Assembly: GCA_040954595.2 (NCBI GenBank)
Contig: CM082587.2
Span: forward strand, 11,677,598-11,741,597
Direction: 5' to 3'
Length of the DNA stretch: 64,000 bases
Source of the DNA: Balanoglossus misakiensis
Lineage: Eukaryota > Animalia > Hemichordata
Position 1 is the stretch's first letter. The number at the start of each line of letters is the position of its first letter. The notes under the pieces are model-generated. The model saw only the letters and a list, made by a program, of their open reading frames with translations. It ran no database searches and had not been told where the DNA came from. The position numbers were made by a program, and so were the translations under genes. Shown one piece after another: positions 522 through 31,300 of the stretch.

Positions 522-2314
522 TGCATTCCTGGCCCTGGTTTTATTTATGTTTACAGACAATATTGCATTTTTGTACAAGTATTTTAATCAACTATAAATT
601 TTGAATGTGTCATTTACCTGAACCGGTCATGTTGACCAGAATGATACATTTCTGCCTTCACTCACCCTATAAATATGTGATTGAGACATAGGTCATTTGC
701 ATAAGCTAACATACCAGAAAGTAAGCATATCTGTTGTTTTCCCTGTGTCACTGCCATCAAAGTAAAAATTAGACGTTGTGTAGAGCAAACTCCAATTTTT
801 TGTTCTCAATAAACATGGATGAATTACATAGAATGTGTTTGTTGTTTACAGTCTTTAAATGACACATTAGATTATGCACTTTACAAAACGTTTCTGAGAA
901 ACAAGTGACTAACTAGTTTCTTTCCACTGTGGCCAACGTGGTTCACTGTTTGTGTCAGAATCTCTCTGTTTTGCAAGGATTTTGAAATCATAGTGGTGAC
1001 ATGCATAGTGAAAATCAGCTACTTTCAAATGTCCGTCATGTTCATGCTGTAATTGAATTTTCAAAGCTGGGCTGGCGTGTTTTTTCTTATTTACATAAGT
1101 ATCACACTTTATACATGTATCTTCATGGGGTTTTTTGAGTCCCGTATTTAGGTCCTCTCTCACAATTTTACGAAATATCGTATAACTGACAGTTGTTCTT
1201 CCCAGAAGAGATTGGTTGGTTATGAACTCTCGGTGTAACTGCGATATACTGTGGTCCGGCGCCAGGTACGGTTTAAATCGAGGATTCCTGCAGTAGTGAG
1301 ATTCTACAATTCTGTGCCTGCGTACGTGTTCAGTGATATCAGTCAGCAAATTTGGATTGAGTTTCCGACGATGCCCTTTGTGTCGGCCCCTTGCATCTGG
1401 CATCAGACCAGTAAAGTTCCATGTGCATTCCTGGCCCTGGTTTTATTTATGTTTACAGACAATATTGCATTTTTGTACAAGTATTTTAATCAACTATAAA
1501 TTTTGAATGTGTCATTTACCTGAACCGGTCATGTTGACCAGAATGATACATTTCTGCCTTCACTCACCCTATAAATATGTGATTGAGACATAGGTCATTT
1601 GCATAAGCTAACATACCAGAAAGTAAGCATATCTGTTGTTTTCCCTGTGTCACTGCCATCAAAGTAAAAATTAGACGTTGTGTAGAGCAAACTCCAATTT
1701 TTTGTTCTCAATAAACATGGATGAATTACATAGAATGTGTTTGTTGTTTACAGTCTTTAAATGACACATTAGATTATGCACTTTACAAAACGTTTCTGAG
1801 AAACAAGTGACTAACTAGTTTCTTTCCACTGTGGCCAACGTGGTTCACTGTTTGTGTCAGAATCTCTCTGTTTTGCAAGGATTTTGAAATCATAGTGGTG
1901 ACATGCATAGTGAAAATCAGCTACTTTCAAATGTCCGTCATGTTCATGCTGTAATTGAATTTTCAAAGCTGGGCTGGCGTGTTTTTTCTTATTTACATAA
2001 GTATCACACTTTATACATGTATCTTCATGGGGTTTTCTGAGTCCCGTATTTAGGTCCTCTCTCACAATTTTACGAAATATCGTATAACTGACAGTTGTTC
2101 TTCCCAGAAGAGATTGGTTGGTTATGAACTCTCGGTGTAACTGCGATATACTGTGGTCCGGCGCCAGGTACGGTTTAAATCGAGGATTCCTGCAGTAGTG
2201 AGATTCTACAATTCTGTGCCTGCGTACGTGTTCAGTGATATCAGTCAGCAAATTTGGATTGAGTTTCCGACGATGCCCTTTGTGTCGGCCCCTTGCATCT
2301 GGCATCAGACCAGT
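511..2314. repeat. 902-bp tandem duplication (511-1412 / 1413-2314)
   Basis: ORF ends at 909 and 1811 are 902 bp apart. I see two differences (520 C/1422 T; 1135 T/2037 C, K vs R). AGT microhomology at the junction (1410-1412). Confidence 0.95.
909..1412 (-). pseudogene. 5'-truncated duplicate of the transposase N-half gene (last ~165 codons)
   Basis: Protein identical to the C-terminal part of the 1811-2767 ORF except one K/R change. It lacks that gene's 5' end and promoter. Confidence 0.85.
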
Positions 2315-2767
2315 TGAACAGTGCATCATTTTGCTTAGAACGGTTCTAGTCCGCCTCTCACTAATGCCAAATAATTTCAGGAATGCATTTTTGCAGACAG
2401 TAACCGTTTCACCGCCTTCATTCACCAGGTGATAACGAACCGATTTCTTGTGTGACTTCATCTGTATATCCATCAGTTTGTAGAGCATCAAGTTCTGTTC
2501 ATTATACACGCGACCATCAAAATATTTTCTCGTGGTGCCTAAAACATGCGTACTCCCAAGCTTCCGCAGACAATTCCCTTGAACGCAGGCGCATTCCAAG
2601 GAAAGACTGTCAATATCTGGAAAAGGGCGATTTTTCCTTGGTTTTTGTCTCGGACACGTCTTTTTAGAATTCCTACGTGGCTTGTTGGCTCGAGCTGACA
2701 GTTCGGTTCTGCGTTGCTGCCACACAGGAATGGGTTCCCACGCATAAGCAACTCCCCGGCAGGCCAT
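1811..2767 (-). CDS. Sola-like transposase, N-terminal (DNA-binding, Cys/His-rich) half, ~318 aa
   Basis: Motifs CACVQGNC, VCKNAFLKLFGISERR, DARGRH, ESHYCR...YL, FRKI...N.GL.KP.EDTC..CD and HL..A are typical of the N-terminal region of Sola-type transposases. First ATG at 2767, TAG at 1811-1813. No catalytic domain. Confidence 0.8.
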   Translation of the reverse strand: MACRGVAYAWEPIPVWQQRRTELSARANKPRRNSKKTCPRQKPRKNRPFPDIDSLSLECACVQGNCLRKLGSTHVLGTTRKYFDGRVYNEQNLMLYKLMDIQMKSHKKSVRYHLVNEGGETVTVCKNAFLKLFGISERRTRTVLSKMMHCSTGLMPDARGRHKGHRRKLNPNLLTDITEHVRRHRIVESHYCRNPRFKPYLAPDHSISQLHREFITNQSLLGRTTVSYTIFRKIVREDLNTGLRKPHEDTCIKCDTYVNKKKHASPALKIQLQHEHDGHLKVADFHYACHHYDFKILAKQRDSDTNSEPRWPQWKETS

Positions 2768-2938
2768 GGTCACAGCTGAAGTATTTGTTCAAGTACTGAC
2801 TGACTAAACGCGGCATGGAACAAACGAACGAACGAACGAACGACTTCACGTTCGGAAAAAAAATCGTTGCGAGCTGTTGGGTGCCTCTATAGTTGTCGGC
2901 AACCGTTCTTTTTTATTGCTAAACAATGCTGTCAGAGC
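2768..2938. promoter_or_regulatory. Putative bidirectional promoter between the two transposase halves, with an (AACG)n microsatellite
   Basis: 171 bp between two divergent ATGs; aacg x5 at ~2823-2842; GTTCGGAA at 2850-2857. Promoter function is inferred from position only. Confidence 0.5.
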
Positions 2939-3952
2939 ATGGAAGGTGTGGTGGAAAACGAACAGAGGTTTTGTACGACCAACGATTGGATGGTGCTACA
3001 TATGGACTTCCACAAGTCATTGCCGGTTCCTAAACTCAGCTCTGAAGACTTTTACTTTAAATCGAAATTGCAAATGAAGCTCCTTGGAATTTACAACGGG
3101 ACAACGGAAAAGATGCATTGTTATGTATGGACAGAGCTCGATAGCAGAAAGTCTCCCGATGAAGTTATTACCTGTCTAAATCACTTTTTTTATAACTCGG
3201 GTGTGACCAGCAGACATGCAGTTATTTACAGCGACAACTGCCGTGCCGAATTCAAGTGTGGGAAGTTAATGTTTTACTATGACTATCTGTTACGAAAGGG
3301 CGTGTTTCGACGAATTGACTATAAAACTCTTGTGGCTGGACACACGTACTCCACCTGTGACCGAGTTTTTGCGTCCATTGAAAGGCATGCAAGTCGTTTC
3401 CAGAGTATAGAGACACCTCACGATTGGACATCTGTGATTCGAGGATCTTCTCTGAATGGGAACATTGGAGTTACGGAGATGACTCACAGAGACTTTTTCA
3501 ATTATTCTGATTTCCTGAAAAATGAGTACGTTGTGCGTTATGCAGATACAAACAATGTAACTTTTTACTACCAAGCCATGCACTATTTTAATTTTGGAGA
3601 AGGAGAAAGGCTTGATACCGACGGCAACCTCAGAACATTTAGTCATGCAGATAAAGTTTGGGTGAGAACATCTCTAGATCCAAGCGAGACCCCGATTGTA
3701 GTCGACTTTAGAAAGAAGAAGCAGAACCGGCGTTTACAAGATTGTACGCTGAACAAACTTTATCAGGAACGTCGACCACTGGCGAGCAAAGTTTGGCGGG
3801 ATCTTCAGAGTTTAGCCAAAAATTACCTGTCTCCGGAGGCAATAGAATTTTATAGGAATCTACCGCTTCAGGAGAGTAGTGGCACCTCTGCAGACCCGTA
3901 CGCCTTTCATGATGATGACGACGACGATGATGATGATATGGGCGGTGGTTGA
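2939..3952 (+). CDS. Sola-like DDD transposase, catalytic (RNase H-fold) half, ~337 aa, with acidic C-terminal tail
   Basis: Motifs MDFHKSLPVPKL..FYFKSKL, GIYN, CYVWTE..SPDEVITCL, YSDNC and LVAGHTYSTCDRVFASIE. Candidate triad D23/D99/D141 (codons 3005, 3233, 3359). First ATG at 2939; the ORF-track start at 2867 is a TTG. Confidence 0.85.
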   Translation: MEGVVENEQRFCTTNDWMVLHMDFHKSLPVPKLSSEDFYFKSKLQMKLLGIYNGTTEKMHCYVWTELDSRKSPDEVITCLNHFFYNSGVTSRHAVIYSDNCRAEFKCGKLMFYYDYLLRKGVFRRIDYKTLVAGHTYSTCDRVFASIERHASRFQSIETPHDWTSVIRGSSLNGNIGVTEMTHRDFFNYSDFLKNEYVVRYADTNNVTFYYQAMHYFNFGEGERLDTDGNLRTFSHADKVWVRTSLDPSETPIVVDFRKKKQNRRLQDCTLNKLYQERRPLASKVWRDLQSLAKNYLSPEAIEFYRNLPLQESSGTSADPYAFHDDDDDDDDDMGGG

Positions 3953-4270
3953 ACAAACTGTCCTTTTCATGACGACAGTGATTTTGGATATTTGATGTGC
4001 GTGCACAGTTTATATGTAATATTTTCACACGAACGAGTTTTGACTGAATTTGATTAAAGAATGTACTCGATAATTAACAAATGTGCTGAATCGTGGTTAT
4101 TATGTTGTTAATTTTTGTTTGTTTGTTTGTTTGTTTGTAAACAATTTCCGTTCATTCAACTGGCTACAAAGTTGGATTTTTGTACTGGGAAGCGATAAAC
4201 TCGCACATCAAAACCGGGGAGACTCGATCATTTTTCCCTGCAGGTAGCCTGAAAAGCACCCGGGCAGAGA

Positions 4271-4344
4271 TTACGTCATATATGGTCCACTTTAATACGA
4301 AATTATGCAAATGTGACATTTCACGGAAACGGCGTATATAAAAG
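4271..4344 (+). promoter_or_regulatory. Pol II promoter of the wHTH-SET gene
   Basis: TATATAAAAG at 4335-4344 (~100 bp before ATG 4436), octamer ATGCAAAT at 4305-4312, CRE/ATF-like TTACGTCA at 4271-4278. Confidence 0.55.
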
Positions 4345-4435
4345 CGACCCTGGGCTATTGTTCGGAATGCGTCATCGACGAGAGAGTGACTGATAATTCT
4401 TCTACCTCGAGTCAACCATTCTGTATATACTGAAC

Positions 4436-5762
4436 ATGGCTAGCTGGCGCAGGAAGAGACAAGGCAATGTGCGGTCTGTAATCAACGAACGGCACCGCTC
4501 AGTTCAGTGTCCCTTTCTTCAAAAGTGGATCGGTGAGCAATTGGTATTTTCAGGTCGTTCAGAGGATGAAGTCCAGTCCAGTACTGTATTTGAGAGCTAC
4601 AAATGTTGGGTTGAAAACTATTCGTCGGCGGACAATCAAGTAATGATTATGGTTACTAAAGCTCGATTTTTCAAGGTGAGAATGATCGCATTTTTCTTCC
4701 CCCCCCCCCTCCCTCCCCCAAGGGACTCGTTTTCTGTCTCTTTTAAACCTGTAACTTAACGAAAAGGAAGTTTTTCACATATCTCTTTGTTGACACTATA
4801 GCAATTTGGAGCGCGGATGCTTCAAGAGAATAGCGTTACCAAATCAAAGTCGGCCGGGGTTAATATTTATAGAGGTGTTCGTCTGAAAGCTGGTTCGCGA
4901 AGAATCTCAACGGGGAAACCTGAGCACAGTGTACTTCAGACCAGGGCAAGGGCATTTCTTGATGACGCCAGCGTGACCGTTCCGATCGAGGTAAGAATGG
5001 TGTTTTGTTTGGACTAGGACAATAGAACGTTGCAATGAGTGTGTCAATGGGTGTCCAAGTGCAAACGTGGTCGGCTTCTGTCCACAAATGCCATTAATTT
5101 TAGGCAGGATTTATAAAATTGTCAATGAAGAATACAAAAATGAAAAACAATAGTTAATAGCAAACGGGTAGGATTGCAAGGGCTTGTAAAACGGTACACA
5201 CTGTACCAGGAAGTTTGCAACACTAATGAAGAATGTATATGATATATTTAGGTGAGAACTGTTCGCGATCGCCGGGACGCAGGACGGTGCGCGTTTTCGA
5301 CGAGGGATCTTCAAGCCTGGAACGTCGTCTGCGAATACCGGGGCACGGTTATTAGCGTTGAAGAAGCTAGTCGGCGTGATGAACTTTACAGGGCAGAGGG
5401 GAAACGACCACGCATGTTTCATCTCTACATTGGAAAGAGACACGTTGTGTGAGTGTATCACTTAGTCGAATATATGGTCATATATTGCAAAGCATCTGTC
5501 GAAATAGAAAACGTAATATTGTCTATATTTTCCTCATTAACGCAGCATTGACGGATACGATGTCCCAGCCGGTGAAGAAAATTTAGCGGGCCTAATAAAT
5601 CACAGTCAGCAGAACGCCAACTTGGTACCGGTTCGGATCGGAGAGCGCCTGGTTTTCTTTGCAACCAGGAATCTTTGTCAGGGAGTAGAGCTTTTGTATG
5701 ATTACGGTGACGGGGGTGAAGAGGATTTCTTCAGTGGTTCTCAAACTTTTCCTGAAAATTAA
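4436..5762 (+). CDS. Spliced gene, ~280 aa: RFX/D5-like winged helix fused to a SET8/PR-Set7-like SET domain; exons 4436-4675, 4802-4990, 5252-5448, 5546-5762
   Basis: GT-AG introns (AAG|gtgag..tatag, GAG|gtaag..tttag, GT|gtgagt..cgcag; phases 0,0,2) join one open frame. SET motifs: GRCAFSTRDL..VCEYRG.VIS.EEA.RR..LY, IDG, GLINHS..NAN, FATRNL.QG.ELLYDYGD. The N-terminus WI..QL..VFESYKCWVE..KARFFKQF..IYRGVRLK resembles an RFX/D5 winged helix (less certain). Confidence 0.85.
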
Positions 5763-5808
5763 GGCATTAACACATCAACGCTTCGGGATGTCGTAACGGC
5801 GGCAAGGC

Positions 5809-5828
5809 GGGGGGGGGGGGGGGGGGGG
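5809..5828 (+). repeat. G20 homopolymer downstream of the SET gene
   Basis: Read directly; also 20 G in copy 2 (28441-28460). Confidence 0.9.
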
Positions 5829-6670
5829 CGTGAAAATGTTTGTATCAGGAACAAAATTCCCGTGCAAATCACCTTGATCCGGGTGGGTGGACTATTCGCG
5901 ACAAATGTTGAAATCATACAAAGCATTTTACTTAATTAACCCATTTTTTTCATTTATTTGTTTACAGTTTACAACGTCATAGAGAAGTTGAACTAGAGAC
6001 TGGATCAGCGTGGGTGACACCATAGTACACCAATGTTTTCTTCAGTTTGATTCAATTGTAATTTAAAACTGAGATTGCCTAACGCTTTCCCAGATTTTTT
6101 TAACCACTGAGAAACTGTGGGTTTTTTTCTGGGTTTTGGTGCGAGGTGATCTCAGTCAGTGGTGTTAATTTAATTAATCATTTTCTTTTCCTATTTACGT
6201 CGACTGAAATGTATTTTGATAGGTGATAGTCATACCATAAAAAAATCTTACGGCGCGACTGCCAAAATGTACATTTATTTGTCCGTTCCAAGTTATTTTG
6301 TGTATGTGTGATGGGTGCCGGTGACTGTGCAGGGTTGATTTCCCTAGAGCGACTGTTATATTCGTTTTCCAACGATGATGAATTTACATGTTATTTGCTT
6401 GGCATTTTGACGCAGAGACACTTCTGAAAACACAAACCTATTAATTATGCCACGGGTGTAAATTGATCACATTAAAAGAGGCTTTAGACGTTTGCCGCGA
6501 GCTCCTGGTGGGCAGAATCTTGTCAGCCCAAATTTGACTATAAGTACATAGCCAATGATGTGACGCTCTCCCACATCCTTCGCCGCGCCTTTTCGCTGAT
6601 TTACAGCATCTTGCGTAAACACTGTCATTTGATCTTGCTTGGCAGAAGTCAACTTGCTCTATACTACATT

Positions 6671-7036
6671 ATGGCGGCCAAGCTCAACTGCATATCAGAT
6701 AATGCCAAGGAGCGTTTGAGAGGCATCCTCGCCAGAAGGAGTCGCGTTTCCGGTGACTGTGTGCTCTGGACGGGTGCAGCTTGTCGAAACGGCTATGGCT
6801 CTATTACGTTCAGAGATGAGAACACTCTAACCGCCTATGTCCATCACATTGCACTCCTAATTAACGGAGTGCAATTGGTGGGCAGGCGGTTAGAGTGTTC
6901 TCATCTTTGCAACGAAAAGCTATGCATCCGCCCAGAGCACATTGTCCAGGAAACGCGACTCCTAAACATTTCACGAAAGACGTGCTTTAAATCCCCAAAA
7001 GGGGAGTGTCACCACGATCCCAGGTGCCTAAGGTGA
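6671..7036 (+). CDS. His-Cys box / His-Me finger zinc-binding endonuclease (I-PpoI-like), ~121 aa
   Basis: Motifs DCVLWTGA..NGYG, AYVHHIA, ECSHLCNEKLCIRPEHIVQET..NISRKTC and C.H.PRC. First ATG at 6671; the ORF-track start at 6560 is a GTG. Confidence 0.85.
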   Translation: MAAKLNCISDNAKERLRGILARRSRVSGDCVLWTGAACRNGYGSITFRDENTLTAYVHHIALLINGVQLVGRRLECSHLCNEKLCIRPEHIVQETRLLNISRKTCFKSPKGECHHDPRCLR

Positions 7037-7288
7037 GTAATCCTCTTCTCATTTGATATGTATTGTGTGACCCTGCAGTTGAAACGCTTTCATCAATAAT
7101 TTGCGGCGCGTGGGTAATCTCGGTGTTATTGACAATGCAGCCGGCCCAAACATTTTTAAATTAACACTGTTTCTGACTGTATTAACGAAATGTCCAATTT
7201 GCAAGTAGCCTATAGACAACCCTTTTGAATGAGTTTTGTCTCGTTGAGATTTTATACATAAGGAACAATCTAGATTTATTTTAGAAGA

Positions 7289-7708
7289 CACTGTTCTTTT
7301 AAAACAGCTAGCATAATACAGCTAAATTTCGGAATTTCCGGACAATTTTCGGAATTCCTTTTAAATTTGAGAAATTTTTCATCAGATATAAGTGTTACTA
7401 TTTATTGGACATGTTTTTATCATTGTTTACTTTTTAAGGTCATTCTCATCCCCCCCCCCCCCCCCCAAAAAAAAGCCGCTTTAGGCTTCATGTTCAGTAA
7501 AAAATCTGGAAAGTTCAGCTGAATTTTACACTGATCACACATTTTTGGGAAGGTCTGGCGCAAAATAAAGGATGACAAATGTAAATCTAATGTCACATTT
7601 GTAAACCTCTAAGTATTGTACACTCATTCTATTAAGTATATGCAAATAGTACGGATAATTTTTTCGGAATGTGGAATTCCGAAATTAGTTCGGAACGTGT
7701 TAGCAGTG
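7289..7708. mobile_element. Possible MITE-like insertion (CACTG...CAGTG, flanking AAGA direct repeat, subterminal inverted TTCGGAAT motifs)
   Basis: AAGA at 7285-7288 and 7709-7712. ctaaatttcggaatttcc (~7322) pairs imperfectly with ggaattccgaaattag (~7673). The perfect terminal match is only 5 bp. Confidence 0.3.
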
Positions 7709-8019
7709 AAGAGATCACCACTGAGGGTTGGAAGGCCTTGCCAGAAATTAACGCGTAAAGTACGCCCTCACAGGCCATGTAAACAAGGTCAAATAAGGCC
7801 GTCTGGCAAACGAATGATTAATTCAACGCGCCATTTGAGCCGAGCTGAGTTGGTCTGAGTTGCGTATCACACAGACTTAGGCTGAATGTCAGTGGAGTAA
7901 CCAGTCCGTTTTAGATTTACCAATGATGTGAATTTAATTTCTTCACCCAGAAAAACAGAACACAACTTGTCTGCAACATGATGCTGGAGGTGACACATGA
8001 CAGAGAAGTGGATCCGCGT

Positions 8020-8355
8020 TGTCAACACAGATGCCAGCATTCAAAAGGGGAGTGCCACCTGCTAAAATCAACTCATCTGCTGTTGGCCCATTTTACCTGT
8101 GGCAACTGTTCAGAGGAGACAACGTTTATTCCGTGCAAGCCAACACGCAATGTTGGGGTCTACCTGTCAACACAGATGCAAGCATTCATGTGAGTGAGTA
8201 TCAGGACTGACCTTGTTTTGCTGAATAATTCATAATGCCTATTTTAGAATTCTTAGAGGCATTTGGAGTTCATTGCCTGGTCAACCAAACTACACCCCTT
8301 AACAGCTGAAACAAAATGCGTATTGTGTTCATTCATTCATTGCTTCAATATATAT
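8020..8355 (+). repeat. Diverged copy of the short satellite monomer inside the cassette
   Basis: Collinear matches to the monomer: cacctgctaaaatcaactcatctgctgttggcc, cacagatgcaagcattcatgtgagtgagt, gcctattttagaattctta, ctggtca, ttcattcattcattgc. Confidence 0.85.
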
Positions 8356-8617
8356 AGGCAACATGAGTATCAAGTAGCACTATTTGTTTACGATTGTATT
8401 CATGAAAACTTCCCACTAACAATTCCACAGTTAATATTGAACACATTTATCCAACAAGGTCAAAAGAAAAAGGGAATCTTCTGGTTCCAAAATACGCCAC
8501 AAATGTGGGTCAACATACAGTGAAATATTATGGTGCTCAAATATGCAACATATCAAATCTGTCTCATCAAAGTCATGCTTTAAAAAAGAATTGAAAAGGT
8601 ATTATTTATCCATTTGA
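8344..8617 (+). pseudogene. Decayed 3' end of a non-LTR retrotransposon ORF2 (L2/CR1-group-like)
   Basis: Frameshifted pieces FNIYRQHEYQVALFVYDCIHENFP / LVPKYATNVGQHTVKYYGAQICN / FKKELKRYYL* resemble the conserved ORF2 C-terminus (...Y.G..IWN.....FK..LK). Confidence 0.6.
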
Positions 8618-8668
8618 CTGCTGTATTTTCAGAAGGAAAACAAACTGAATTTGGTTTTTCATGTACAA

Positions 8669-11600
8669 ATATTTTCTGTAAAATAGACATTTAATTGGCA
8701 AGCCGTCCTGCATCAATTATTAATTGTGTACATGCACTAAAGCGCCCTCACTGCTGGGTGTGTTGTATGGTCTTTAACCCTGTTTCAAATTAGAGTACTT
8801 TCTGCAATTTCAAGACAGATCTTACGTGCCATTGGAGAGCTCCATTGACTGGTCATTCATACTGTTTTCATTCATTCATTGCGGCATCAATATATTTTAT
8901 GTATTCTAGCCAAAGAGCTTGGCACCTGTTGAAATGAACTCATCTGCTGTGGGCCAGTTTATTGGTGGCAGTTGAGCTGAGGAGAGCACCTTCCTTCCCG
9001 GCACGCCACCAAGTAAAGTTCCACGCCGCCCACCACAGATGCCAGCATTCATTCATGCGAGTGAGTGTAATTGCAAATTTGCCTATTCTAGATCTGTAAT
9101 GGAAATGGAGAAAGTACCTTATATTTTCTGTAAAATAGACATTTAATTGGCAAGCCGTCCTGCATCAATTATTAATTGTGTACATGCACTAAAGCGCCCT
9201 CACTGCTGGGTGTGTTGTATGGTCTTTAACCCTGTTTCAAATTAGAGTACTTTCTGCAATTTCAAGACAGATCTTACGTGCCATTGGAGAGCTCCATTGA
9301 CTGGTCATTCATACTGTTTTCATTCATTCATTGCGGCATCAATATATTTTATCTATTCTAGCCAAAGAGCTTGGCACCTGTTGAAATGAACTCATCTGCT
9401 GTGGGCCAGTTTATTGGTGGCAGTTGAGCTGAGGAGAGCACCTTCCTTCCCGGCACGCCACCAAGTAAAGTTCCACGCCGCCCACCACAGATGCCAGCAT
9501 TCATTCATGCGAGTGAGTGTAATTGCAAATTTGCCTATTCTAGAATTACGTGCCATTGGAGAGCTCCATTGACTGGTCATTCATACTGTTTTCATTCATT
9601 CATTGCGGCATCAATATATTTTATCTATTCTAGCCAAAGAGCTTGGCACCTGTTGAAATGAACTCATCTGCTGTGGGCCAGTTTATTGGTGGCAGTTGAG
9701 CTGAGGAGAGCACCTTCCTTCCCGGCACGCCACCAAGTAAAGTTCCACGCCGCCCACCACAGATGCCAGCATTCATTCATGCGAGTGAGTGTAATTGCAA
9801 ATTTGCCTATTCTAGATCTGTAATGGAAATGGAGAAAGTACCTTATATTTTCTGTAAAATAGACATTTAATTGGCAAGCCGTCCTGCATCAATTATGAAT
9901 TGTGTACATGCACTAAAGCGCCCTCACTGCTGGGTGTGTTGTATGGTCTTTAACCCTGTTTCAAATTAGAGTACTTTCTGCAATTTCAAGACAGATCTTA
10001 CGTGCCATTGGAGAGCTCCATTGACTGGTCATTCATACTGTTTTCATTCATTCATTGCGGCATCAATATATTTTATCTATTCTAGCCAAAGAGCTTGGCA
10101 CCTGTTGAAATGAACTCATCTGCTGTGGGCCAGTTTATTGGTGGCAGTTGAGCTGAGGAGAGCACCTTCCTTCCCGGCACGCCACCAAGTAAAGTTCCAC
10201 GCCGCCCACCACAGATGCCAGCATTCATTCATGCGAGTGAGTGTAATTGCAAATTTGCCTATTCTAGAATCTTACGTGCCATTGGAGAGCTCCATTGACT
10301 GGTCATTCATACTGTTTTCATTCATTCATTGCGGCATCAATATATTTTATCTATTCTAGCCAAAGAGCTTGGCACCTGTTGAAATGAACTCATCTGCTGT
10401 GGGCCAGTTTATTGGTGGCAGTTGAGCTGAGGAGAGCACCTTCCTTCCCGGCACGCCACCAAGTAAAGTTCCACGCCGCCCACCACAGATGCCAGCATTC
10501 ATTCATGCGAGTGAGTGTAATTGCAAATTTGCCTATTCTAGATCTGTAATGGAAATGGAGAAAGTACCTTATATTTTCTGTAAAATAGACATTTAATTGG
10601 CAAGCCGTCCTGCATCAATTATTAATTGTGTACATGCACTAAAGCGCCCTCACTGCTGGGTGTGTTGTATGGTCTTTAACCCTGTTTCAAATTAGAGTAC
10701 TTTCTGCAATTTCAAGACAGATCTTACGTGCCATTGGAGAGCTCCATTGACTGGTCATTCATACTGTTTTCATTCATTCATTGCGGCATCAATATATTTT
10801 ATCTATTCTAGCCAAAGAGCTTGGCACCTGTTGAAATGAACTCATCTGCTGTGGGCCAGTTTATTGGTGGCAGTTGAGCTGAGAAGAGCACCTTCCTTCC
10901 CGGCACGCCACCAAGTAAAGTTCCACGCCGCCCACCACAGATGCCAGCATTCATTCATGCGAGTGAGTGTAATTGCAAATTTGCCTATTCTAGATCTGTA
11001 ATGGAAATGGAGAAAGTACCTTATATTTTCTGTAAAATAGACATTTAATTGGCAAGCCGTCCTGCATCAATTATGAATTGTGTACATGCACTAAAGCGCC
11101 CTCACTGCTGGGTGTGTTGTATGGTCTTTAACCCTGTTTCAAATTAGAGTACTTTCTGCAATTTCAAGACAGATCTTACGTGCCATTGGAGAGCTCCATT
11201 GACTGGTCATTCATACTGTTTTCATTCATTCATTGCGGCATCAATATATTTTATCTATTCTAGCCAAAGAGCTTGGCACCTGTTGAAATGAACTCATCTG
11301 CTGTGGGCCAGTTTATTGGTGGCAGTTGAGCTGAGGAGAGCACCTTCCTTCCCGGCACGCCACCAAGTAAAGTTCCACGCCGCCCACCACAGATGCCAGC
11401 ATTCATTCATGCGAGTGAGTGTAATTGCAAATTTGCCTATTCTAGATCTGTAATGGAAATGGAGAAAGTACCTTATATTTTCTGTAAAATAGACATTTAA
11501 TTGGCAAGCCGTCCTGCATCAATTATGAATTGTGTACATGCACTAAAGCGCCCTCACTGCTGGGTGTGTTGTATGGTCTTTAACCCTGTTTCAAATTAGA

Positions 11601-14600
11601 GTACTTTCTGCAATTTCAAGACAGATCTTACGTGCCATTGGAGAGCTCCATTGACTGGTCATTCATACTGTTTTCATTCATTCATTGCGGCATCAATATA
11701 TTTTATCTATTCTAGCCAAAGAGCTTGGCACCTGTTGAAATGAACTCATCTGCTGTGGGCCAGTTTATTGGTGGCAGTTGAGCTGAGGAGAGCACCTTCC
11801 TTCCCGGCACGCCACCAAGTAAAGTTCCACGCCGCCCACCACAGATGCCAGCATTCATTCATGCGAGTGAGTGTAATTGCAAATTTGCCTATTCTAGATC
11901 TGTAATGGAAATGGAGAAAGTACCTTATATTTTCTGTAAAATAGACATTTAATTGGCAAGCCGTCCTGCATCAATTATGAATTGTGTACATGCACTAAAG
12001 CGCCCTCACTGCTGGGTGTGTTGTATGGTCTTTAACCCTGTTTCAAATTAGAGTACTTTCTGCAATTTCAAGACAGATCTTACGTGCCATTGGAGAGCTC
12101 CATTGACTGGTCATTCATACTGTTTTCATTCATTCATTGCGGCATCAATATATTTTATCTATTCTAGCCAAAGAGCTTGGCACCTGTTGAAATGAACTCA
12201 TCTGCTGTGGGCCAGTTTATTGGTGGCAGTTGAGCTGAGGAGAGCACCTTCCTTCCCGGCACGCCACCAAGTAAAGTTCCACGCCGCCCACCACAGATGC
12301 CAGCATTCATTCATGCGAGTGAGTGTAATTGCAAATTTGCCTATTCTAGATCTGTAATGGAAATGGAGAAAGTACCTTATATTTTCTGTAAAATAGACAT
12401 TTAATTGGCAAGCCGTCCTGCATCAATTATGAATTGTGTACATGCACTAAAGCGCCCTCACTGCTGGGTGTGTTGTATGGTCTTTAACCCTGTTTCAAAT
12501 TAGAGTACTTTCTGCAATTTCAAGACAGATCTTACGTGCCATTGGAGAGCTCCATTGACTGGTCATTCATACTGTTTTCATTCATTCATTGCGGCATCAA
12601 TATATTTTATCTATTCTAGCCAAAGAGCTTGGCACCTGTTGAAATGAACTCATCTGCTGTGGGCCAGTTTATTGGTGGCAGTTGAGCTGAGAAGAGCACC
12701 TTCCTTCCCGGCACGCCACCAAGTAAAGTTCCACGCCGCCCACCACAGATGCCAGCATTCATTCATGCGAGTGAGTGTAATTGCAAATTTGCCTATTCTA
12801 GAATCTTACGTGCCATTGGAGAGCTCCATTGACTGGTCATTCATACTGTTTTCATTCATTCATTGCGGCATCAATATATTTTATCTATTCTAGCCAAAGA
12901 GCTTGGCACCTGTTGAAATGAACTCATCTGCTGTGGGCCAGTTTATTGGTGGCAGTTGAGCTGAGGAGAGCACCTTCCTTCCCGGGACGCCACCAAGTAA
13001 AGTTCCACGCCGCCCACCACAGATGCCAGCATTCATTCATGCGAGTGAGTGTAATTGCAAATTTGCCTATTCTAGATTCTTACGTGCCATTGGAGAGCTC
13101 CATTGACTGGTCATTCATACTGTTTTCATTCATTCATTGCGGCATCAATATATTTTATCTATTCTAGCCAAAGAGCTTGGCACCTGTTGAAATGAACTCA
13201 TCTGCTGTGGGCCAGTTTATTGGTGGCAGTTGAGCTGAGGAGAGCACCTTCCTTCCCGGCACGCCACCAAGTAAAGTTCCACGCCGCCCACCACAGATGC
13301 CAGCATTCATTCATGCGAGTGAGTGTAATTGCAAATTTGCCTATTCTAGATCTGTAATGGAAATGGAGAAAGTACCTTATATTTTCTGTAAAATAGACAT
13401 TTAATTGGCAAGCCGTCCTGCATCAATTATTAATTGTGTACATGCACTAAAGCGCCCTCACTGCTGGGTGTGTTGTATGGTCTTTAACCCTGTTTCAAAT
13501 TAGAGTACTTTCTGCAATTTCAAGACAGATCTTACGTGCCATTGGAGAGCTCCATTGACTGGTCATTCATACTGTTTTCATTCATTCATTGCGGCATCAA
13601 TATATTTTATCTATTCTAGCCAAAGAGCTTGGCACCTGTTGAAATGAACTCATCTGCTGTGGGCCAGTTTATTGGTGGCAGTTGAGCTGAGGAGAGCACC
13701 TTCCTTCCCGGCACGCCACCAAGTAAAGTTCCACGCCGCCCACCACAGATGCCAGCATTCATTCATGCGAGTGAGTGTAATTGCAAATTTGCCTATTCTA
13801 GATCTGTAATGGAAATGGAGAAAGTACCTTATATTTTCTGTAAAATAGACATTTAATTGGCAAGCCGTCCTGCATCAATTATTAATTGTGTACATGCACT
13901 AAAGCGCCCTCACTGCTGGGTGTGTTGTATGGTCTTTAACCCTGTTTCAAATTAGAGTACTTTCTGCAATTTCAAGACAGATCTTACGTGCCATTGGAGA
14001 GCTCCATTGACTGGTCATTCATACTGTTTTCATTCATTCATTGCGGCATCAATATATTTTATCTATTCTAGCCAAAGAGCTTGGCACCTGTTGAAATGAA
14101 CTCATCTGCTGTGGGCCAGTTTATTGGTGGCAGTTGAGCTGAGGAGAGCACCTTCCTTCCCGGCACGCCACCAAGTAAAGTTCCACGCCGCCCACCACAG
14201 ATGCCAGCATTCATTCATGCGAGTGAGTGTAATTGCAAATTTGCCTATTCTAGAATTACGTGCCATTGGAGAGCTCCATTGACTGGTCATTCATACTGTT
14301 TTCATTCATTCATTGCGGCATCAATATATTTTATCTATTCTAGCCAAAGAGCTTGGCACCTGTTGAAATGAACTCATCTGCTGTGGGCCAGTTTATTGGT
14401 GGCAGTTGAGCTGAGGAGAGCACCTTCCTTCCCGGCACGCCACCAAGTAAAGTTCCACGCCGCCCACCACAGATGCCAGCATTCATTCATGCGAGTGAGT
14501 GTAATTGCAAATTTGCCTATTCTAGATCTGTAATGGAAATGGAGAAAGTACCTTATATTTTCTGTAAAATAGACATTTAATTGGCAAGCCGTCCTGCATC

Positions 14601-17600
14601 AATTATGAATTGTGTACATGCACTAAAGCGCCCTCACTGCTGGGTGTGTTGTATGGTCTTTAACCCTGTTTCAAATTAGAGTACTTTCTGCAATTTCAAG
14701 ACAGATCTTACGTGCCATTGGAGAGCTCCATTGACTGGTCATTCATACTGTTTTCATTCATTCATTGCGGCATCAATATATTTTATCTATTCTAGCCAAA
14801 GAGCTTGGCACCTGTTGAAATGAACTCATCTGCTGTGGGCCAGTTTATTGGTGGCAGTTGAGCTGAGGAGAGCACCTTCCTTCCCGGCACGCCACCAAGT
14901 AAAGTTCCACGCCGCCCACCACAGATGCCAGCATTCATTCATGCGAGTGAGTGTAATTGCAAATTTGCCTATTCTAGAATCTTACGTGCCATTGGAGAGC
15001 TCCATTGACTGGTCATTCATACTGTTTTCATTCATTCATTGCGGCATCAATATATTTTATCTATTCTAGCCAAAGAGCTTGGCACCTGTTGAAATGAACT
15101 CATCTGCTGTGGGCCAGTTTATTGGTGGCAGTTGAGCTGAGGAGAGCACCTTCCTTCCCGGCACGCCACCAAGTAAAGTTCCACGCCGCCCACCACAGAT
15201 GCCAGCATTCATTCATGCGAGTGAGTGTAATTGCAAATTTGCCTATTCTAGATCTGTAATGGAAATGGAGAAAGTACCTTATATTTTCTGTAAAATAGAC
15301 ATTTAATTGGCAAGCCGTCCTGCATCAATTATTAATTGTGTACATGCACTAAAGCGCCCTCACTGCTGGGTGTGTTGTATGGTCTTTAACCCTGTTTCAA
15401 ATTAGAGTACTTTCTGCAATTTCAAGACAGATCTTACGTGCCATTGGAGAGCTCCATTGACTGGTCATTCATACTGTTTTCATTCATTCATTGCGGCATC
15501 AATATATTTTATCTATTCTAGCCAAAGAGCTTGGCACCTGTTGAAATGAACTCATCTGCTGTGGGCCAGTTTATTGGTGGCAGTTGAGCTGAGAAGAGCA
15601 CCTTCCTTCCCGGCACGCCACCAAGTAAAGTTCCACGCCGCCCACCACAGATGCCAGCATTCATTCATGCGAGTGAGTGTAATTGCAAATTTGCCTATTC
15701 TAGATCTGTAATGGAAATGGAGAAAGTACCTTATATTTTCTGTAAAATAGACATTTAATTGGCAAGCCGTCCTGCATCAATTATGAATTGTGTACATGCA
15801 CTAAAGCGCCCTCACTGCTGGGTGTGTTGTATGGTCTTTAACCCTGTTTCAAATTAGAGTACTTTCTGCAATTTCAAGACAGATCTTACGTGCCATTGGA
15901 GAGCTCCATTGACTGGTCATTCATACTGTTTTCATTCATTCATTGCGGCATCAATATATTTTATCTATTCTAGCCAAAGAGCTTGGCACCTGTTGAAATG
16001 AACTCATCTGCTGTGGGCCAGTTTATTGGTGGCAGTTGAGCTGAGGAGAGCACCTTCCTTCCCGGCACGCCACCAAGTAAAGTTCCACGCCGCCCACCAC
16101 AGATGCCAGCATTCATTCATGCGAGTGAGTGTAATTGCAAATTTGCCTATTCTAGATCTGTAATGGAAATGGAGAAAGTACCTTATATTTTCTGTAAAAT
16201 AGACATTTAATTGGCAAGCCGTCCTGCATCAATTATGAATTGTGTACATGCACTAAAGCGCCCTCACTGCTGGGTGTGTTGTATGGTCTTTAACCCTGTT
16301 TCAAATTAGAGTACTTTCTGCAATTTCAAGACAGATCTTACGTGCCATTGGAGAGCTCCATTGACTGGTCATTCATACTGTTTTCATTCATTCATTGCGG
16401 CATCAATATATTTTATCTATTCTAGCCAAAGAGCTTGGCACCTGTTGAAATGAACTCATCTGCTGTGGGCCAGTTTATTGGTGGCAGTTGAGCTGAGGAG
16501 AGCACCTTCCTTCCCGGCACGCCACCAAGTAAAGTTCCACGCCGCCCACCACAGATGCCAGCATTCATTCATGCGAGTGAGTGTAATTGCAAATTTGCCT
16601 ATTCTAGATCTGTAATGGAAATGGAGAAAGTACCTTATATTTTCTGTAAAATAGACATTTAATTGGCAAGCCGTCCTGCATCAATTATGAATTGTGTACA
16701 TGCACTAAAGCGCCCTCACTGCTGGGTGTGTTGTATGGTCTTTAACCCTGTTTCAAATTAGAGTACTTTCTGCAATTTCAAGACAGATCTTACGTGCCAT
16801 TGGAGAGCTCCATTGACTGGTCATTCATACTGTTTTCATTCATTCATTGCGGCATCAATATATTTTATCTATTCTAGCCAAAGAGCTTGGCACCTGTTGA
16901 AATGAACTCATCTGCTGTGGGCCAGTTTATTGGTGGCAGTTGAGCTGAGGAGAGCACCTTCCTTCCCGGCACGCCACCAAGTAAAGTTCCACGCCGCCCA
17001 CCACAGATGCCAGCATTCATTCATGCGAGTGAGTGTAATTGCAAATTTGCCTATTCTAGATCTGTAATGGAAATGGAGAAAGTACCTTATATTTTCTGTA
17101 AAATAGACATTTAATTGGCAAGCCGTCCTGCATCAATTATGAATTGTGTACATGCACTAAAGCGCCCTCACTGCTGGGTGTGTTGTATGGTCTTTAACCC
17201 TGTTTCAAATTAGAGTACTTTCTGCAATTTCAAGACAGATCTTACGTGCCATTGGAGAGCTCCATTGACTGGTCATTCATACTGTTTTCATTCATTCATT
17301 GCGGCATCAATATATTTTATCTATTCTAGCCAAAGAGCTTGGCACCTGTTGAAATGAACTCATCTGCTGTGGGCCAGTTTATTGGTGGCAGTTGAGCTGA
17401 GAAGAGCACCTTCCTTCCCGGCACGCCACCAAGTAAAGTTCCACGCCGCCCACCACAGATGCCAGCATTCATTCATGCGAGTGAGTGTAATTGCAAATTT
17501 GCCTATTCTAGAATCTTACGTGCCATTGGAGAGCTCCATTGACTGGTCATTCATACTGTTTTCATTCATTCATTGCGGCATCAATATATTTTATCTATTC

Positions 17601-20600
17601 TAGCCAAAGAGCTTGGCACCTGTTGAAATGAACTCATCTGCTGTGGGCCAGTTTATTGGTGGCAGTTGAGCTGAGGAGAGCACCTTCCTTCCCGGGACGC
17701 CACCAAGTAAAGTTCCACGCCGCCCACCACAGATGCCAGCATTCATTCATGCGAGTGAGTGTAATTGCAAATTTGCCTATTCTAGATTCTTACGTGCCAT
17801 TGGAGAGCTCCATTGACTGGTCATTCATACTGTTTTCATTCATTCATTGCGGCATCAATATATTTTATCTATTCTAGCCAAAGAGCTTGGCACCTGTTGA
17901 AATGAACTCATCTGCTGTGGGCCAGTTTATTGGTGGCAGTTGAGCTGAGGAGAGCACCTTCCTTCCCGGCACGCCACCAAGTAAAGTTCCACGCCGCCCA
18001 CCACAGATGCCAGCATTCATTCATGCGAGTGAGTGTAATTGCAAATTTGCCTATTCTAGATCTGTAATGGAAATGGAGAAAGTACCTTATATTTTCTGTA
18101 AAATAGACATTTAATTGGCAAGCCGTCCTGCATCAATTATTAATTGTGTACATGCACTAAAGCGCCCTCACTGCTGGGTGTGTTGTATGGTCTTTAACCC
18201 TGTTTCAAATTAGAGTACTTTCTGCAATTTCAAGACAGATCTTACGTGCCATTGGAGAGCTCCATTGACTGGTCATTCATACTGTTTTCATTCATTCATT
18301 GCGGCATCAATATATTTTATCTATTCTAGCCAAAGAGCTTGGCACCTGTTGAAATGAACTCATCTGCTGTGGGCCAGTTTATTGGTGGCAGTTGAGCTGA
18401 GGAGAGCACCTTCCTTCCCGGCACGCCACCAAGTAAAGTTCCACGCCGCCCACCACAGATGCCAGCATTCATTCATGCGAGTGAGTGTAATTGCAAATTT
18501 GCCTATTCTAGAATTACGTGCCATTGGAGAGCTCCATTGACTGGTCATTCATACTGTTTTCATTCATTCATTGCGGCATCAATATATTTTATCTATTCTA
18601 GCCAAAGAGCTTGGCACCTGTTGAAATGAACTCATCTGCTGTGGGCCAGTTTATTGGTGGCAGTTGAGCTGAGGAGAGCACCTTCCTTCCCGGCACGCCA
18701 CCAAGTAAAGTTCCACGCCGCCCACCACAGATGCCAGCATTCATTCATGCGAGTGAGTGTAATTGCAAATTTGCCTATTCTAGATCTGTAATGGAAATGG
18801 AGAAAGTACCTTATATTTTCTGTAAAATAGACATTTAATTGGCAAGCCGTCCTGCATCAATTATGAATTGTGTACATGCACTAAAGCGCCCTCACTGCTG
18901 GGTGTGTTGTATGGTCTTTAACCCTGTTTCAAATTAGAGTACTTTCTGCAATTTCAAGACAGATCTTACGTGCCATTGGAGAGCTCCATTGACTGGTCAT
19001 TCATACTGTTTTCATTCATTCATTGCGGCATCAATATATTTTATCTATTCTAGCCAAAGAGCTTGGCACCTGTTGAAATGAACTCATCTGCTGTGGGCCA
19101 GTTTATTGGTGGCAGTTGAGCTGAGGAGAGCACCTTCCTTCCCGGCACGCCACCAAGTAAAGTTCCACGCCGCCCACCACAGATGCCAGCATTCATTCAT
19201 GCGAGTGAGTGTAATTGCAAATTTGCCTATTCTAGATCTGTAATGGAAATGGAGAAAGTACCTTATATTTTCTGTAAAATAGACATTTAATTGGCAAGCC
19301 GTCCTGCATCAATTATGAATTGTGTACATGCACTAAAGCGCCCTCACTGCTGGGTGTGTTGTATGGTCTTTAACCCTGTTTCAAATTAGAGTACTTTCTG
19401 CAATTTCAAGACAGATCTTACGTGCCATTGGAGAGCTCCATTGACTGGTCATTCATACTGTTTTCATTCATTCATTTCGGCATCAATATATTTTATCTAT
19501 TCTAGCCAAAGAGCTTGGCACCTGTTGAAATGAACTCATCTGCTGTGGGCCAGTTTATTGGTGGCAGTTGAGCTGAGAAGAGCACCTTCCTTCCCGGCAC
19601 GCCACCAAGTAAAGTTCCACGCCGCCCACCACAGATGCCAGCATTCATTCATGCGAGTGAGTGTAATTGCAAATTTGCCTATTCTAGAATCTTACGTGCC
19701 ATTGGAGAGCTCCATTGACTGGTCATTCATACTGTTTTCATTCATTCATTGCGGCATCAATATATTTTATCTATTCTAGCCAAAGAGCTTGGCACCTGTT
19801 GAAATGAACTCATCTGCTGTGGGCCAGTTTATTGGTGGCAGTTGAGCTGAGGAGAGCACCTTCCTTCCCGGGACGCCACCAAGTAAAGTTCCACGCCGCC
19901 CACCACAGATGCCAGCATTCATTCATGCGAGTGAGTGTAATTGCAAATTTGCCTATTCTAGATTCTTACGTGCCATTGGAGAGCTCCATTGACTGGTCAT
20001 TCATACTGTTTTCATTCATTCATTGCGGCATCAATATATTTTATCTATTCTAGCCAAAGAGCTTGGCACCTGTTGAAATGAACTCATCTGCTGTGGGCCA
20101 GTTTATTGGTGGCAGTTGAGCTGAGGAGAGCACCTTCCTTCCCGGCACGCCACCAAGTAAAGTTCCACGCCGCCCACCACAGATGCCAGCATTCATTCAT
20201 GCGAGTGAGTGTAATTGCAAATTTGCCTATTCTAGATCTGTAATGGAAATGGAGAAAGTACCTTATATTTTCTGTAAAATAGACATTTAATTGGCAAGCC
20301 GTCCTGCATCAATTATTAATTGTGTACATGCACTAAAGCGCCCTCACTGCTGGGTGTGTTGTATGGTCTTTAACCCTGTTTCAAATTAGAGTACTTTCTG
20401 CAATTTCAAGACAGATCTTACGTGCCATTGGAGAGCTCCATTGACTGGTCATTCATACTGTTTTCATTCATTCATTGCGGCATCAATATATTTTATCTAT
20501 TCTAGCCAAAGAGCTTGGCACCTGTTGAAATGAACTCATCTGCTGTGGGCCAGTTTATTGGTGGCAGTTGAGCTGAGGAGAGCACCTTCCTTCCCGGCAC

Positions 20601-23153
20601 GCCACCAAGTAAAGTTCCACGCCGCCCACCACAGATGCCAGCATTCATTCATGCGAGTGAGTGTAATTGCAAATTTGCCTATTCTAGAATTACGTGCCAT
20701 TGGAGAGCTCCATTGACTGGTCATTCATACTGTTTTCATTCATTCATTGCGGCATCAATATATTTTATCTATTCTAGCCAAAGAGCTTGGCACCTGTTGA
20801 AATGAACTCATCTGCTGTGGGCCAGTTTATTGGTGGCAGTTGAGCTGAGGAGAGCACCTTCCTTCCCGGCACGCCACCAAGTAAAGTTCCACGCCGCCCA
20901 CCACAGATGCCAGCATTCATTCATGCGAGTGAGTGTAATTGCAAATTTGCCTATTCTAGATCTGTAATGGAAATGGAGAAAGTACCTTATATTTTCTGTA
21001 AAATAGACATTTAATTGGCAAGCCGTCCTGCATCAATTATGAATTGTGTACATGCACTAAAGCGCCCTCACTGCTGGGTGTGTTGTATGGTCTTTAACCC
21101 TGTTTCAAATTAGAGTACTTTCTGCAATTTCAAGACAGATCTTACGTGCCATTGGAGAGCTCCATTGACTGGTCATTCATACTGTTTTCATTCATTCATT
21201 GCGGCATCAATATATTTTATCTATTCTAGCCAAAGAGCTTGGCACCTGTTGAAATGAACTCATCTGCTGTGGGCCAGTTTATTGGTGGCAGTTGAGCTGA
21301 GGAGAGCACCTTCCTTCCCGGCACGCCACCAAGTAAAGTTCCACGCCGCCCACCACAGATGCCAGCATTCATTCATGCGAGTGAGTGTAATTGCAAATTT
21401 GCCTATTCTAGATCTGTAATGGAAATGGAGAAAGTACCTTATATTTTCTGTAAAATAGACATTTAATTGGCAAGCCGTCCTGCATCAATTATTAATTGTG
21501 TACATGCACTAAAGCGCCCTCACTGCTGGGTGTGTTGTATGGTCTTTAACCCTGTTTCAAATTAGAGTACTTTCTGCAATTTCAAGACAGATCTTACGTG
21601 CCATTGGAGAGCTCCATTGACTGGTCATTCATACTGTTTTCATTCATTCATTGCGGCATCAATATATTTTATCTATTCTAGCCAAAGAGCTTGGCACCTG
21701 TTGAAATGAACTCATCTGCTGTGGGCCAGTTTATTGGTGGCAGTTGAGCTGAGAAGAGCACCTTCCTTCCCGGCACGCCACCAAGTAAAGTTCCACGCCG
21801 CCCACCACAGATGCCAGCATTCATTCATGCGAGTGAGTGTAATTGCAAATTTGCCTATTCTAGATCTGTAATGGAAATGGAGAAAGTACCTTATATTTTC
21901 TGTAAAATAGACATTTAATTGGCAAGCCGTCCTGCATCAATTATGAATTGTGTACATGCACTAAAGCGCCCTCACTGCTGGGTGTGTTGTATGGTCTTTA
22001 ACCCTGTTTCAAATTAGAGTACTTTCTGCAATTTCAAGACAGATCTTACGTGCCATTGGAGAGCTCCATTGACTGGTCATTCATACTGTTTTCATTCATT
22101 CATTGCGGCATCAATATATTTTATCTATTCTAGCCAAAGAGCTTGGCACCTGTTGAAATGAACTCATCTGCTGTGGGCCAGTTTATTGGTGGCAGTTGAG
22201 CTGAGGAGAGCACCTTCCTTCCCGGCACGCCACCAAGTAAAGTTCCACGCCGCCCACCACAGATGCCAGCATTCATTCATGCGAGTGAGTGTAATTGCAA
22301 ATTTGCCTATTCTAGATCTGTAATGGAAATGGAGAAAGTACCTTATATTTTCTGTAAAATAGACATTTAATTGGCAAGCCGTCCTGCATCAATTATGAAT
22401 TGTGTACATGCACTAAAGCGCCCTCACTGCTGGGTGTGTTGTATGGTCTTTAACCCTGTTTCAAATTAGAGTACTTTCTGCAATTTCAAGACAGATCTTA
22501 CGTGCCATTGGAGAGCTCCATTGACTGGTCATTCATACTGTTTTCATTCATTCATTGCGGCATCAATATATTTTATCTATTCTAGCCAAAGAGCTTGGCA
22601 CCTGTTGAAATGAACTCATCTGCTGTGGGCCAGTTTATTGGTGGCAGTTGAGCTGAGGAGAGCACCTTCCTTCCCGGCACGCCACCAAGTAAAGTTCCAC
22701 GCCGCCCACCACAGATGCCAGCATTCATTCATGCGAGTGAGTGTAATTGCAAATTTGCCTATTCTAGATCTGTAATGGAAATGGAGAAAGTACCTTATAT
22801 TTTCTGTAAAATAGACATTTAATTGGCAAGCCGTCCTGCATCAATTATGAATTGTGTACATGCACTAAAGCGCCCTCACTGCTGGGTGTGTTGTATGGTC
22901 TTTAACCCTGTTTCAAATTAGAGTACTTTCTGCAATTTCAAGACAGATCTTACGTGCCATTGGAGAGCTCCATTGACTGGTCATTCATACTGTTTTCATT
23001 CATTCATTGCGGCATCAATATATTTTATCTATTCTAGCCAAAGAGCTTGGCACCTGTTGAAATGAACTCATCTGCTGTGGGCCAGTTTATTGGTGGCAGT
23101 TGAGCTGAGGAGAGCACCTTCCTTCCCGGCACGCCACCAAGTAAAGTTCCACG
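8669..23153 (+). repeat. Satellite array 1 (~14.5 kb, ~37 monomers: 452 bp plus four 272-bp and eight 274-bp variants)
   Basis: Near-identical tandem monomers. Higher-order periods of 4710 bp (9392->14102) and 2176 bp (17382->19558). Confidence 0.98.
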
Positions 23154-23540
23154 TGCATTCCTGGCCCTGGTTTTATTTATGTTTACAGACAATATTGCAT
23201 TTTTGTACAAGTATTTTAATCAACTATAAATTTTGAATGTGTCATTTACCTGAACCGGTCATGTTGACCAGAATGATACATTTCTGCCTTCACTCACCCT
23301 ATAAATATGTGATTGAGACATAGGTCATTTGCATAAGCTAACATACCAGAAAGTAAGCATATCTGTTGTTTTCCCTGTGTCACTGCCATCAAAGTAAAAA
23401 TTAGACGTTGTGTAGAGCAAACTCCAATTTTTTGTTCTCAATAAACATGGATGAATTACATAGAATGTGTTTGTTGTTTACAGTCTTTAAATGACACATT
23501 AGATTATGCACTTTACAAAACGTTTCTGAGAAACAAGTGA

Positions 23541-24044
23541 CTAACTAGTTTCTTTCCACTGTGGCCAACGTGGTTCACTGTTTGTGTCAGAATCTCTCTG
23601 TTTTGCAAGGATTTTGAAATCATAGTGGTGACATGCATAGTGAAAATCAGCTACTTTCAAATGTCCGTCATGTTCATGCTGTAATTGAATTTTCAAAGCT
23701 GGGCTGGCGTGTTTTTTCTTATTTACATAAGTATCACACTTTATACATGTATCTTCATGGGGTTTTTTGAGTCCCGTATTTAGGTCCTCTCTCACAATTT
23801 TACGAAATATCGTATAACTGACAGTTGTTCTTCCCAGAAGAGATTGGTTGGTTATGAACTCTCGGTGTAACTGCGATATACTGTGGTCCGGCGCCAGGTA
23901 CGGTTTAAATCGAGGATTCCTGCAGTAGTGAGATTCTACAATTCTGTGCCTGCGTACGTGTTCAGTGATATCAGTCAGCAAATTTGGATTGAGTTTCCGA
24001 CGATGCCCTTTGTGTCGGCCCCTTGCATCTGGCATCAGACCAGT
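23541..24044 (-). pseudogene. Truncated duplicate of the transposase N-half (copy 2)
   Basis: Same translation as 909-1412. Confidence 0.85.
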
Positions 24045-25399: not shown

Positions 25400-25570
25400 G
25401 GTCACAGCTGAAGTATTTGTTCAAGTACTGACTGACTAAACGCGGCATGGAACAAACGAACGAACGAACGAACGACTTCACGTTCGGAAAAAAAATCGTT
25501 GCGAGCTGTTGGGTGCCTCTATAGTTGTCGGCAACCGTTCTTTTTTATTGCTAAACAATGCTGTCAGAGC

Positions 25571-31249: not shown

Positions 31250-31300
31250 CTGCTGTATTTTCAGAAGGAAAACAAACTGAATTTGGTTTTTCATGTACAA

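Follow-up and report, generated by a model that had tools for sequence, protein, structure and literature searches.

In the published passages that deal with it, the Sola superfamily is described as encoding a transposase with a triad of three aspartates (DDD) on an RNase H-like core (PMC10741241) and as carrying terminal inverted repeats of 11-1124 bp (PMC10741241, PMC3845634). Sola1 is given there with one open reading frame (ORF) of ~630 amino acids (aa) (PMC10741241, PMC3845634) and a 4-bp target duplication with AWWT preference (PMC3845634). PIF/Harbinger (PHIS) elements need two proteins, the second being a Myb/SANT or YqaJ protein without relationship to the transposase (PMC4482050, PMC2836001). 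KolobokP combines a DDD/E transposase with a His-Me nuclease, tandem multimers and direct repeats of ~450 bp, and has relatives in marine invertebrates (PMC9587614). Here we analyzed a stretch of 64,000 nucleotides from the hemichordate Balanoglossus misakiensis (assembly GCA_040954595.2, contig CM082587.2, forward strand positions 11,677,598 to 11,741,597; called the window in the following), in which a transposase related to single-chain DUF7869 proteins is encoded by two genes on opposite strands. The original prediction, made from the letters of the window, had taken this pair for a two-subunit transposase expressed from a bidirectional promoter rather than for a broken gene. As judged from the sequences, a two-subunit transposase is likely the best explanation of the locus. 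The two halves cover the single-chain enzyme in a complementary manner, with a fixed cut point, one origin, opposite strands, selection on both halves and an intact catalytic triad.

The N half is encoded by gene P0001 on the minus strand (1811-2767, 318 aa) and the C half by gene P0002 on the plus strand (2939-3952, 337 aa), the latter with a DUF7869 RNase H-like core, and both are open from ATG to stop. The coordinates and translations agree with the original prediction in that both ORFs are intact, head-to-head and free of frameshifts, with their ATGs 171 bp apart. The spacer in between (2768-2938) is a candidate shared promoter and contains an AACG repeat, which differs among copies. Both ATGs are preceded by a purine at -3 and followed by a G at +4. 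P0001 carries the motif KPHEDTCIKCD...HLKVA and the protein ends ~39 residues past the His of this motif. In a Pfam search no family was obtained for P0001 at E<=0.1, and P0002 matched DUF7869 (PF25273) with E=1.1e-14. The first Asp of P0002 is residue 23, which fits the expected position of the first catalytic Asp ~22 aa into the plus-strand ORF. The candidate polyadenylation (polyA) signals are present as hexamers (minus-strand AATAAA at 1442 and plus-strand ATTAAA at 4053), but the non-coding DNA of the repeated unit in which the genes lie is equally rich in them, as such hexamers occur in 214 of 342 segments of 400 nt and 81 of 370 segments of 110 nt. This is chance level, and the hexamers were therefore dropped as evidence for gene ends. 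At 504-1412 on the minus strand the 3' half of the N gene is present once more, together with downstream DNA, as a tandem duplicate (99.7%), which leaves a partial ORF at 909-1403.

A HMMER search with P0001 gave 2,597 relatives, of which 150 were listed and examined, and in 76 of these 150 homologues the P0002 region is found in the same chain. A word-index search with the N half yielded 276 candidates, none of which is a relative. From 40 single-chain proteins a fused reference profile of 642 positions was built, on which the N half occupies 86-335 and the C half 341-640 with no overlap. Together with the 76 fused homologues this complementary coverage bears out the earlier claim that the two segments are contiguous in canonical single-chain transposases. 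The summed length of the halves is ~650 aa. Residues D23, D99 and D141 of P0002 are Asp in all split rows covering them and in 27-28 of 28 fused rows, and 41 residues separate the second from the third. A Glu two residues ahead of D141 is present in 20 of the 28 fused proteins and not kept in the split forms. From its conservation, and by analogy with mariner, we take D141 to be the third catalytic residue. P0002 thus has the DDD triad on an RNase H-like core that is a feature of the Sola superfamily.

Structures predicted with AlphaFold2 place the cut. Each half folds alone, with predicted local distance difference test scores (pLDDT) of 90 and 83. The C-half model was matched to retroviral integrase and mariner cores (best Z 9.9, root-mean-square deviation (rmsd) 3.1, 133 aligned residues; Foldseek E ~1e-4). 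The N-half model ends with a long helix (266-303) followed by a short Trp/Pro tail, and the first strand of the catalytic core comprises residues 17-24 of the C-half model. According to these models the cut point would lie in the loop that links the N half's last long helix to the first RNase H strand, and each half could fold by itself. The N half is Cys/His-rich and predicted to bind DNA. A hairpin insert specific to the split clade is located at ~216-243 of P0002. For close relatives no solved structure was found.

The same division was found in other proteins. The six best N-half matches are stand-alone proteins of 306-347 aa with the same endpoint as P0001, most of them with a Trp/Pro tail. 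Two C-half matches, one of them from Saccoglossus kowalevskii, have their starting Met 15 residues ahead of the first Asp, and two further ones begin later than this shared Met. The cut point is held across proteins that are 31-52% identical. For the Saccoglossus C-half protein P0005 (XP_002739486.2) the older model starts at the shared Met, and the newer RefSeq model has 38 additional N-terminal residues. The top N match and the top C match each lie on a 2,400-base contig and each is the sister of the window on its tree, and we infer that they share one contig. The nearest neighbour of P0002 is a cluster in the Atlas that comprises 94 DUF7869 proteins (representative of 334 aa), mostly from Cnidaria where the source is known. 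Relatives were obtained neither from viral and metagenome contigs scanned with the C half nor from viral contigs scanned with the N half.

A quick tree with 161 rows puts the N half of the window inside a clade of 26 rows without any fused member (Shimodaira-Hasegawa-like approximate likelihood ratio test (SH-aLRT) 82). In the careful trees 15 split N rows group together with support of 97/94 and 10 split C rows with 100/100. The N and C trees are congruent, with the same three groups and the same pairings. Furthermore, the site at 214-247 holds 33-35 residues in all eight split C rows covering it versus at most 23 in 46 fused rows, giving the split clade its own C-half insert of 12-14 aa. The split is ancient and inherited, not a local break. 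That the locus is not a broken gene is well supported, as the split is clade-wide and under selection; no fused close relative was present among the matches, trees and related loci examined, and both halves group with the same relatives rather than in different clades.

To this, 39 related loci can be added, which come from scans with the N half of the branch that holds an Oculina protein. Both halves are present in 11 of the 39, with the C half on the opposite strand in all 11 and none fused. Nine of these are arranged head-to-head and two tail-to-tail; counted as families they are six, namely four head-to-head (two of them 83% alike) and two tail-to-tail, where as much as 6 kb separates the halves. 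In 33 loci the N profile is covered to its end, and none of the 29 with at least 300 nt downstream continues into a same-strand C half. Selection was assessed from pairwise comparisons, of which those involving the window's own genes are mostly saturated. For three pairs of N halves the ratio of nonsynonymous to synonymous substitution rates (dN/dS) was 0.18-0.34 (p<=2e-6). The sole unsaturated C-half pair gave 0.24 and 0.27 for two stretches (p=0.002 and 0.017), and in two deeper C pairs the proportion of nonsynonymous differences (pN) was 0.14-0.16 versus 0.78-0.79 for synonymous ones (pS). Both halves are under purifying selection.

Some of the related loci have features of their own. In L030 a 28-nt inverted copy of the C-gene leader and start codon lies downstream of the C gene (534-561 and 2008-2035), possibly a scar of gene-shuffling inversions. 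In loci L005 and L017 the genes seem to follow one order, circularly permuted. L017 carries downstream of the N gene, at 5851-10674, a long terminal repeat (LTR) retrotransposon with reverse transcriptase and integrase-like frames; apparent element ends at this locus were rejected, the right one being this insertion and the left one a short variable repeat. L001 (DMXI01000429.1) belongs to a bacterial metagenome-assembled genome (MAG; Microscillaceae), and its N-half gene is 88-97% identical to animal-type metagenome copies; it is likely host contamination of the MAG assembly.

In the window the two genes are part of a non-satellite unit of 8,147 bp (522-8668). A second copy (23154-31300; N gene 24443-25399, C gene 25571-26584) is 100% identical, and a third starts at 63175 and is truncated where the window ends. 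Between the units lies a satellite array (8669-23153 and again 31301-63174) whose monomers measure 452 bp and 272-275 bp. Within the satellite the unit has spread in this genome at least partly by tandem amplification. Downstream of the C gene a SET-domain gene is found on the plus strand (4436-5762) with four exons (4436-4675, 4802-4990, 5252-5448 and 5546-5762), GT-AG introns and 280 aa without internal stop. Exons homologous to it were detected near the N gene in 13 of the 39 related loci. With respect to the halves, the SET gene is placed and oriented differently in the window and in its relatives. A His-Me finger (His-Cys box) nuclease ORF of 121 aa follows on the plus strand (6671-7036; PF05551, E=2e-13), which was found in none of the 39 loci. 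Inside this ORF, at 6811-6909, there is a 26-nt inverted repeat (96%) with a 47-nt loop. The segment 7325-7702 contains inverted repeats (7336-7358 and 7673-7695), and loose contig ends coincide with both of its borders; it is likely a multi-copy miniature inverted-repeat transposable element insertion.

The unit also contains, at 8053-8199, a 71% diverged copy of part of a satellite monomer, and satellite and unit may therefore have a common origin. Of the 452-bp monomer 76 copies were counted; it consists of the shorter monomer plus a 177-bp piece, which is bounded by a 28-nt imperfect inverted repeat with AT on both flanks. The clean 273-bp empty site is not represented among the 38 short monomers; instead four different junctions occur (15, 12, 10 and 1 copies), resembling the footprints that a hairpin-forming transposase leaves on excision. 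The junctions of the 177-bp insert suggest a 2-bp duplication as opposed to the 4 bp of Sola. A 2-bp AT duplication is given for ISL2EU in the corresponding passage of PMC4482050.

Read data were available from runs X1 and X2, which represent one sample, possibly the window's own source, and are not independent support; runs X3 and X4 contained short low-depth pieces only and were excluded. In X1 one contig spans most of each gene, with summed depths of 754 and 770; the N ORF shows a single substitution, the C ORF is unchanged, and the duplicated part of the N gene has twice the depth of the genes. Several diverged contigs were obtained for the SET gene (5493-5669) and the His-Me gene (6963-7018), and for the C gene only short low-depth ones. 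The diverged SET and His-Me contigs indicate that this sample contains related elements as well. In X2 the joints between satellite and genes start with GATC, and we regarded them as probable library chimeras.

Among the described systems, the locus is close to the single-chain DUF7869 transposases. The label Sola1 for DUF7869 is provisional; the homologues are unnamed or carry the label DUF7869. With these proteins the halves share homology over the whole length, the same domain order end to end and the DDD residues, at ~650 versus 630 aa. By triad and size the element would fit Sola1, and we file it as Sola1-like rather than as a proven Sola member. It differs from Sola1 in having two opposite-strand ORFs in place of one, in the window as in all 11 two-half loci, and further in the 12-14 aa C-half insert and the SET and His-Me passengers. 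Terminal repeats and the 4-bp AWWT duplication were not found here, where no ends were located. As in PIF/Harbinger, a catalytic protein and a separate, here predicted, DNA-binding protein would come from one element. However, the second protein derives from the N-terminal half of the transposase itself and shows homology to the first part of the abundant fused DUF7869 proteins; it is not an unrelated Myb/SANT or YqaJ protein. For SET cargo there is a precedent in HarbingerS, for which a SET gene is reported (PMC12730594). The PF05551 nuclease gene and the tandem multimers are shared with KolobokP, whereas the transposase appears to belong to a different family (Pfam DUF7869 here, with 41 residues between the second and third Asp) and is single-chain in KolobokP. 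The long direct repeats of KolobokP with their own terminal inverted repeats have no counterpart: the 452-bp repeat forms long satellite arrays, no inverted repeats are present at the unit junctions, the unit joins the satellite monomer at two different internal points, and the only inverted repeat in the monomer bounds the inner 177-bp piece.

One rival explanation is that a recent inversion broke a single-ORF transposase, whose dead copy was then multiplied passively with the satellite. The window copies are indeed identical and embedded in satellite, but the same cut point at 31-52% identity, the monophyly of both halves, the selection and the shared derived features refute it for the lineage, and no contig at >=80% identity joins the halves (in one sample, possibly the window's source); we consider it extremely improbable. 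Alternatively, the halves could be re-joined into one ordinary polypeptide, either by trans-splicing of two transcripts or by DNA inversion. They nearly abut on the fused profile, and an AG is placed directly ahead of the conserved C-region start in the window. However, N genes stop 2-10 codons past the conserved motif (in all 12 loci inspected) or end in a conserved Trp/Pro tail, the C genes have their own start Met, and none of the X1 contigs over 1780-4100 contains a joint of N end and C start. Since the longest inverted match between N end and C start is 7 bp, programmed inversion was rejected, and re-joining as a whole appears very unlikely.

Two further explanations accept the split as it is. 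The halves may have become independent, the N half as a DNA-binding regulator and the C half as a self-sufficient transposase whose enlarged C-terminal domain binds DNA. The many loci with an N half and no nearby C half, as well as the clade-specific insert and the long branch of the C half, are in favor of this. Against it, the N and C trees are congruent and the N half has retained both the Cys/His motifs of the fused enzyme and its long last helix. Furthermore, DDE cores generally require their DNA-binding domains. We regard independent halves as improbable. A tamed, non-mobile cassette, in which the split genes together with SET and His-Me act on host chromatin or the satellite and are propagated by unequal crossover only, would account for the element ends not being found in the window or related loci, for the identical tandem units within satellite and for the many near-identical copies indicated by X1, with summed depth of ~750-770 and one contig per gene. 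But the related loci comprise many divergent families in which most copies are decayed and the gene order is shuffled, as in transposons, one protein cluster has members on several contigs and the catalytic triad is retained. This explanation is unlikely too, if less so than the others.

We thus favor a DUF7869 (Sola1-like) DDD transposase whose gene was split once, long ago, onto opposite strands and whose proteins likely reassemble non-covalently, with a probability of about 70%. Several points weigh against it. Terminal inverted repeats were not detected around either the unit or the related genes, where the true ends may be lost or lie outside the contigs, and no target-site duplication in the window or related loci. 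The C half is absent from 28 of the 39 loci, including 12 with at least 1.5 kb upstream of N, and both ORFs are whole in only one two-half family (the L011 group), the others being broken or cut by contig ends. The loci were fetched by N-half patterns of one branch, by which other layouts may be missed, and the rows of the careful trees were chosen by hand, including 21 of the 76 fused proteins. For the N-half model, Foldseek gave no match at E<=0.001, and the best match, the DNA-binding region of TnsB, reached Z 6.9 only (rmsd 2.7, 69 aligned residues) and serves as a lead.

For the non-covalent transposase the following mechanism can be proposed. With its winged-helix and Cys/His motifs the N subunit would bind the element ends, and its last long helix would serve to recruit the C subunit. 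A new interface may be formed by the hydrophobic end and Trp/Pro tail of N and by the C-half hairpin of 12-14 aa. The split was probably created or fixed by an inversion. In this copy the 171-bp spacer could drive both genes, and a shared promoter is plausible there; because two of the six families are tail-to-tail and up to 6 kb apart it is not a general rule, and orientation appears to be free in the family. The SET methyltransferase likely manages the element's own chromatin. A more far-reaching version, in which the free DNA-binding subunit recruits either the catalytic subunit or SET and an element without terminal repeats multiplies in the satellite via the His-Me nuclease, is doubtful, but can be formulated.

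A literature search found no report of a split Sola or DUF7869 transposase, where Repbase Reports and the original Sola paper were outside the search and a prior note is possible. The Sola passages of PMC5751038, PMC10294476, PMC4455052, PMC3985635 and bioRxiv 10.1101/2021.09.26.461848 mention no split form, and the searched part of the supplement of PMC3985635 gave no Sola1 rows. Such elements are easily mis-annotated as dead fragments or host genes, for example as LOC genes in Saccoglossus (LOC100368598) and Oculina (LOC144640782). For AND-gated or retargetable gene-insertion tools, a transposase that is split by nature offers a ready template. In eukaryotic cut-and-paste transposases binding and catalysis are normally united in one chain, and the known two-gene elements add an unrelated protein. 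Here fused and split forms coexist in one family, so that the cut point, the changes at the interface and the loss of covalent linkage are open to direct study. This makes it testable how two-component transposons can originate by fission, and how such an element escapes parasitism or controls itself through the ratio of its subunits.

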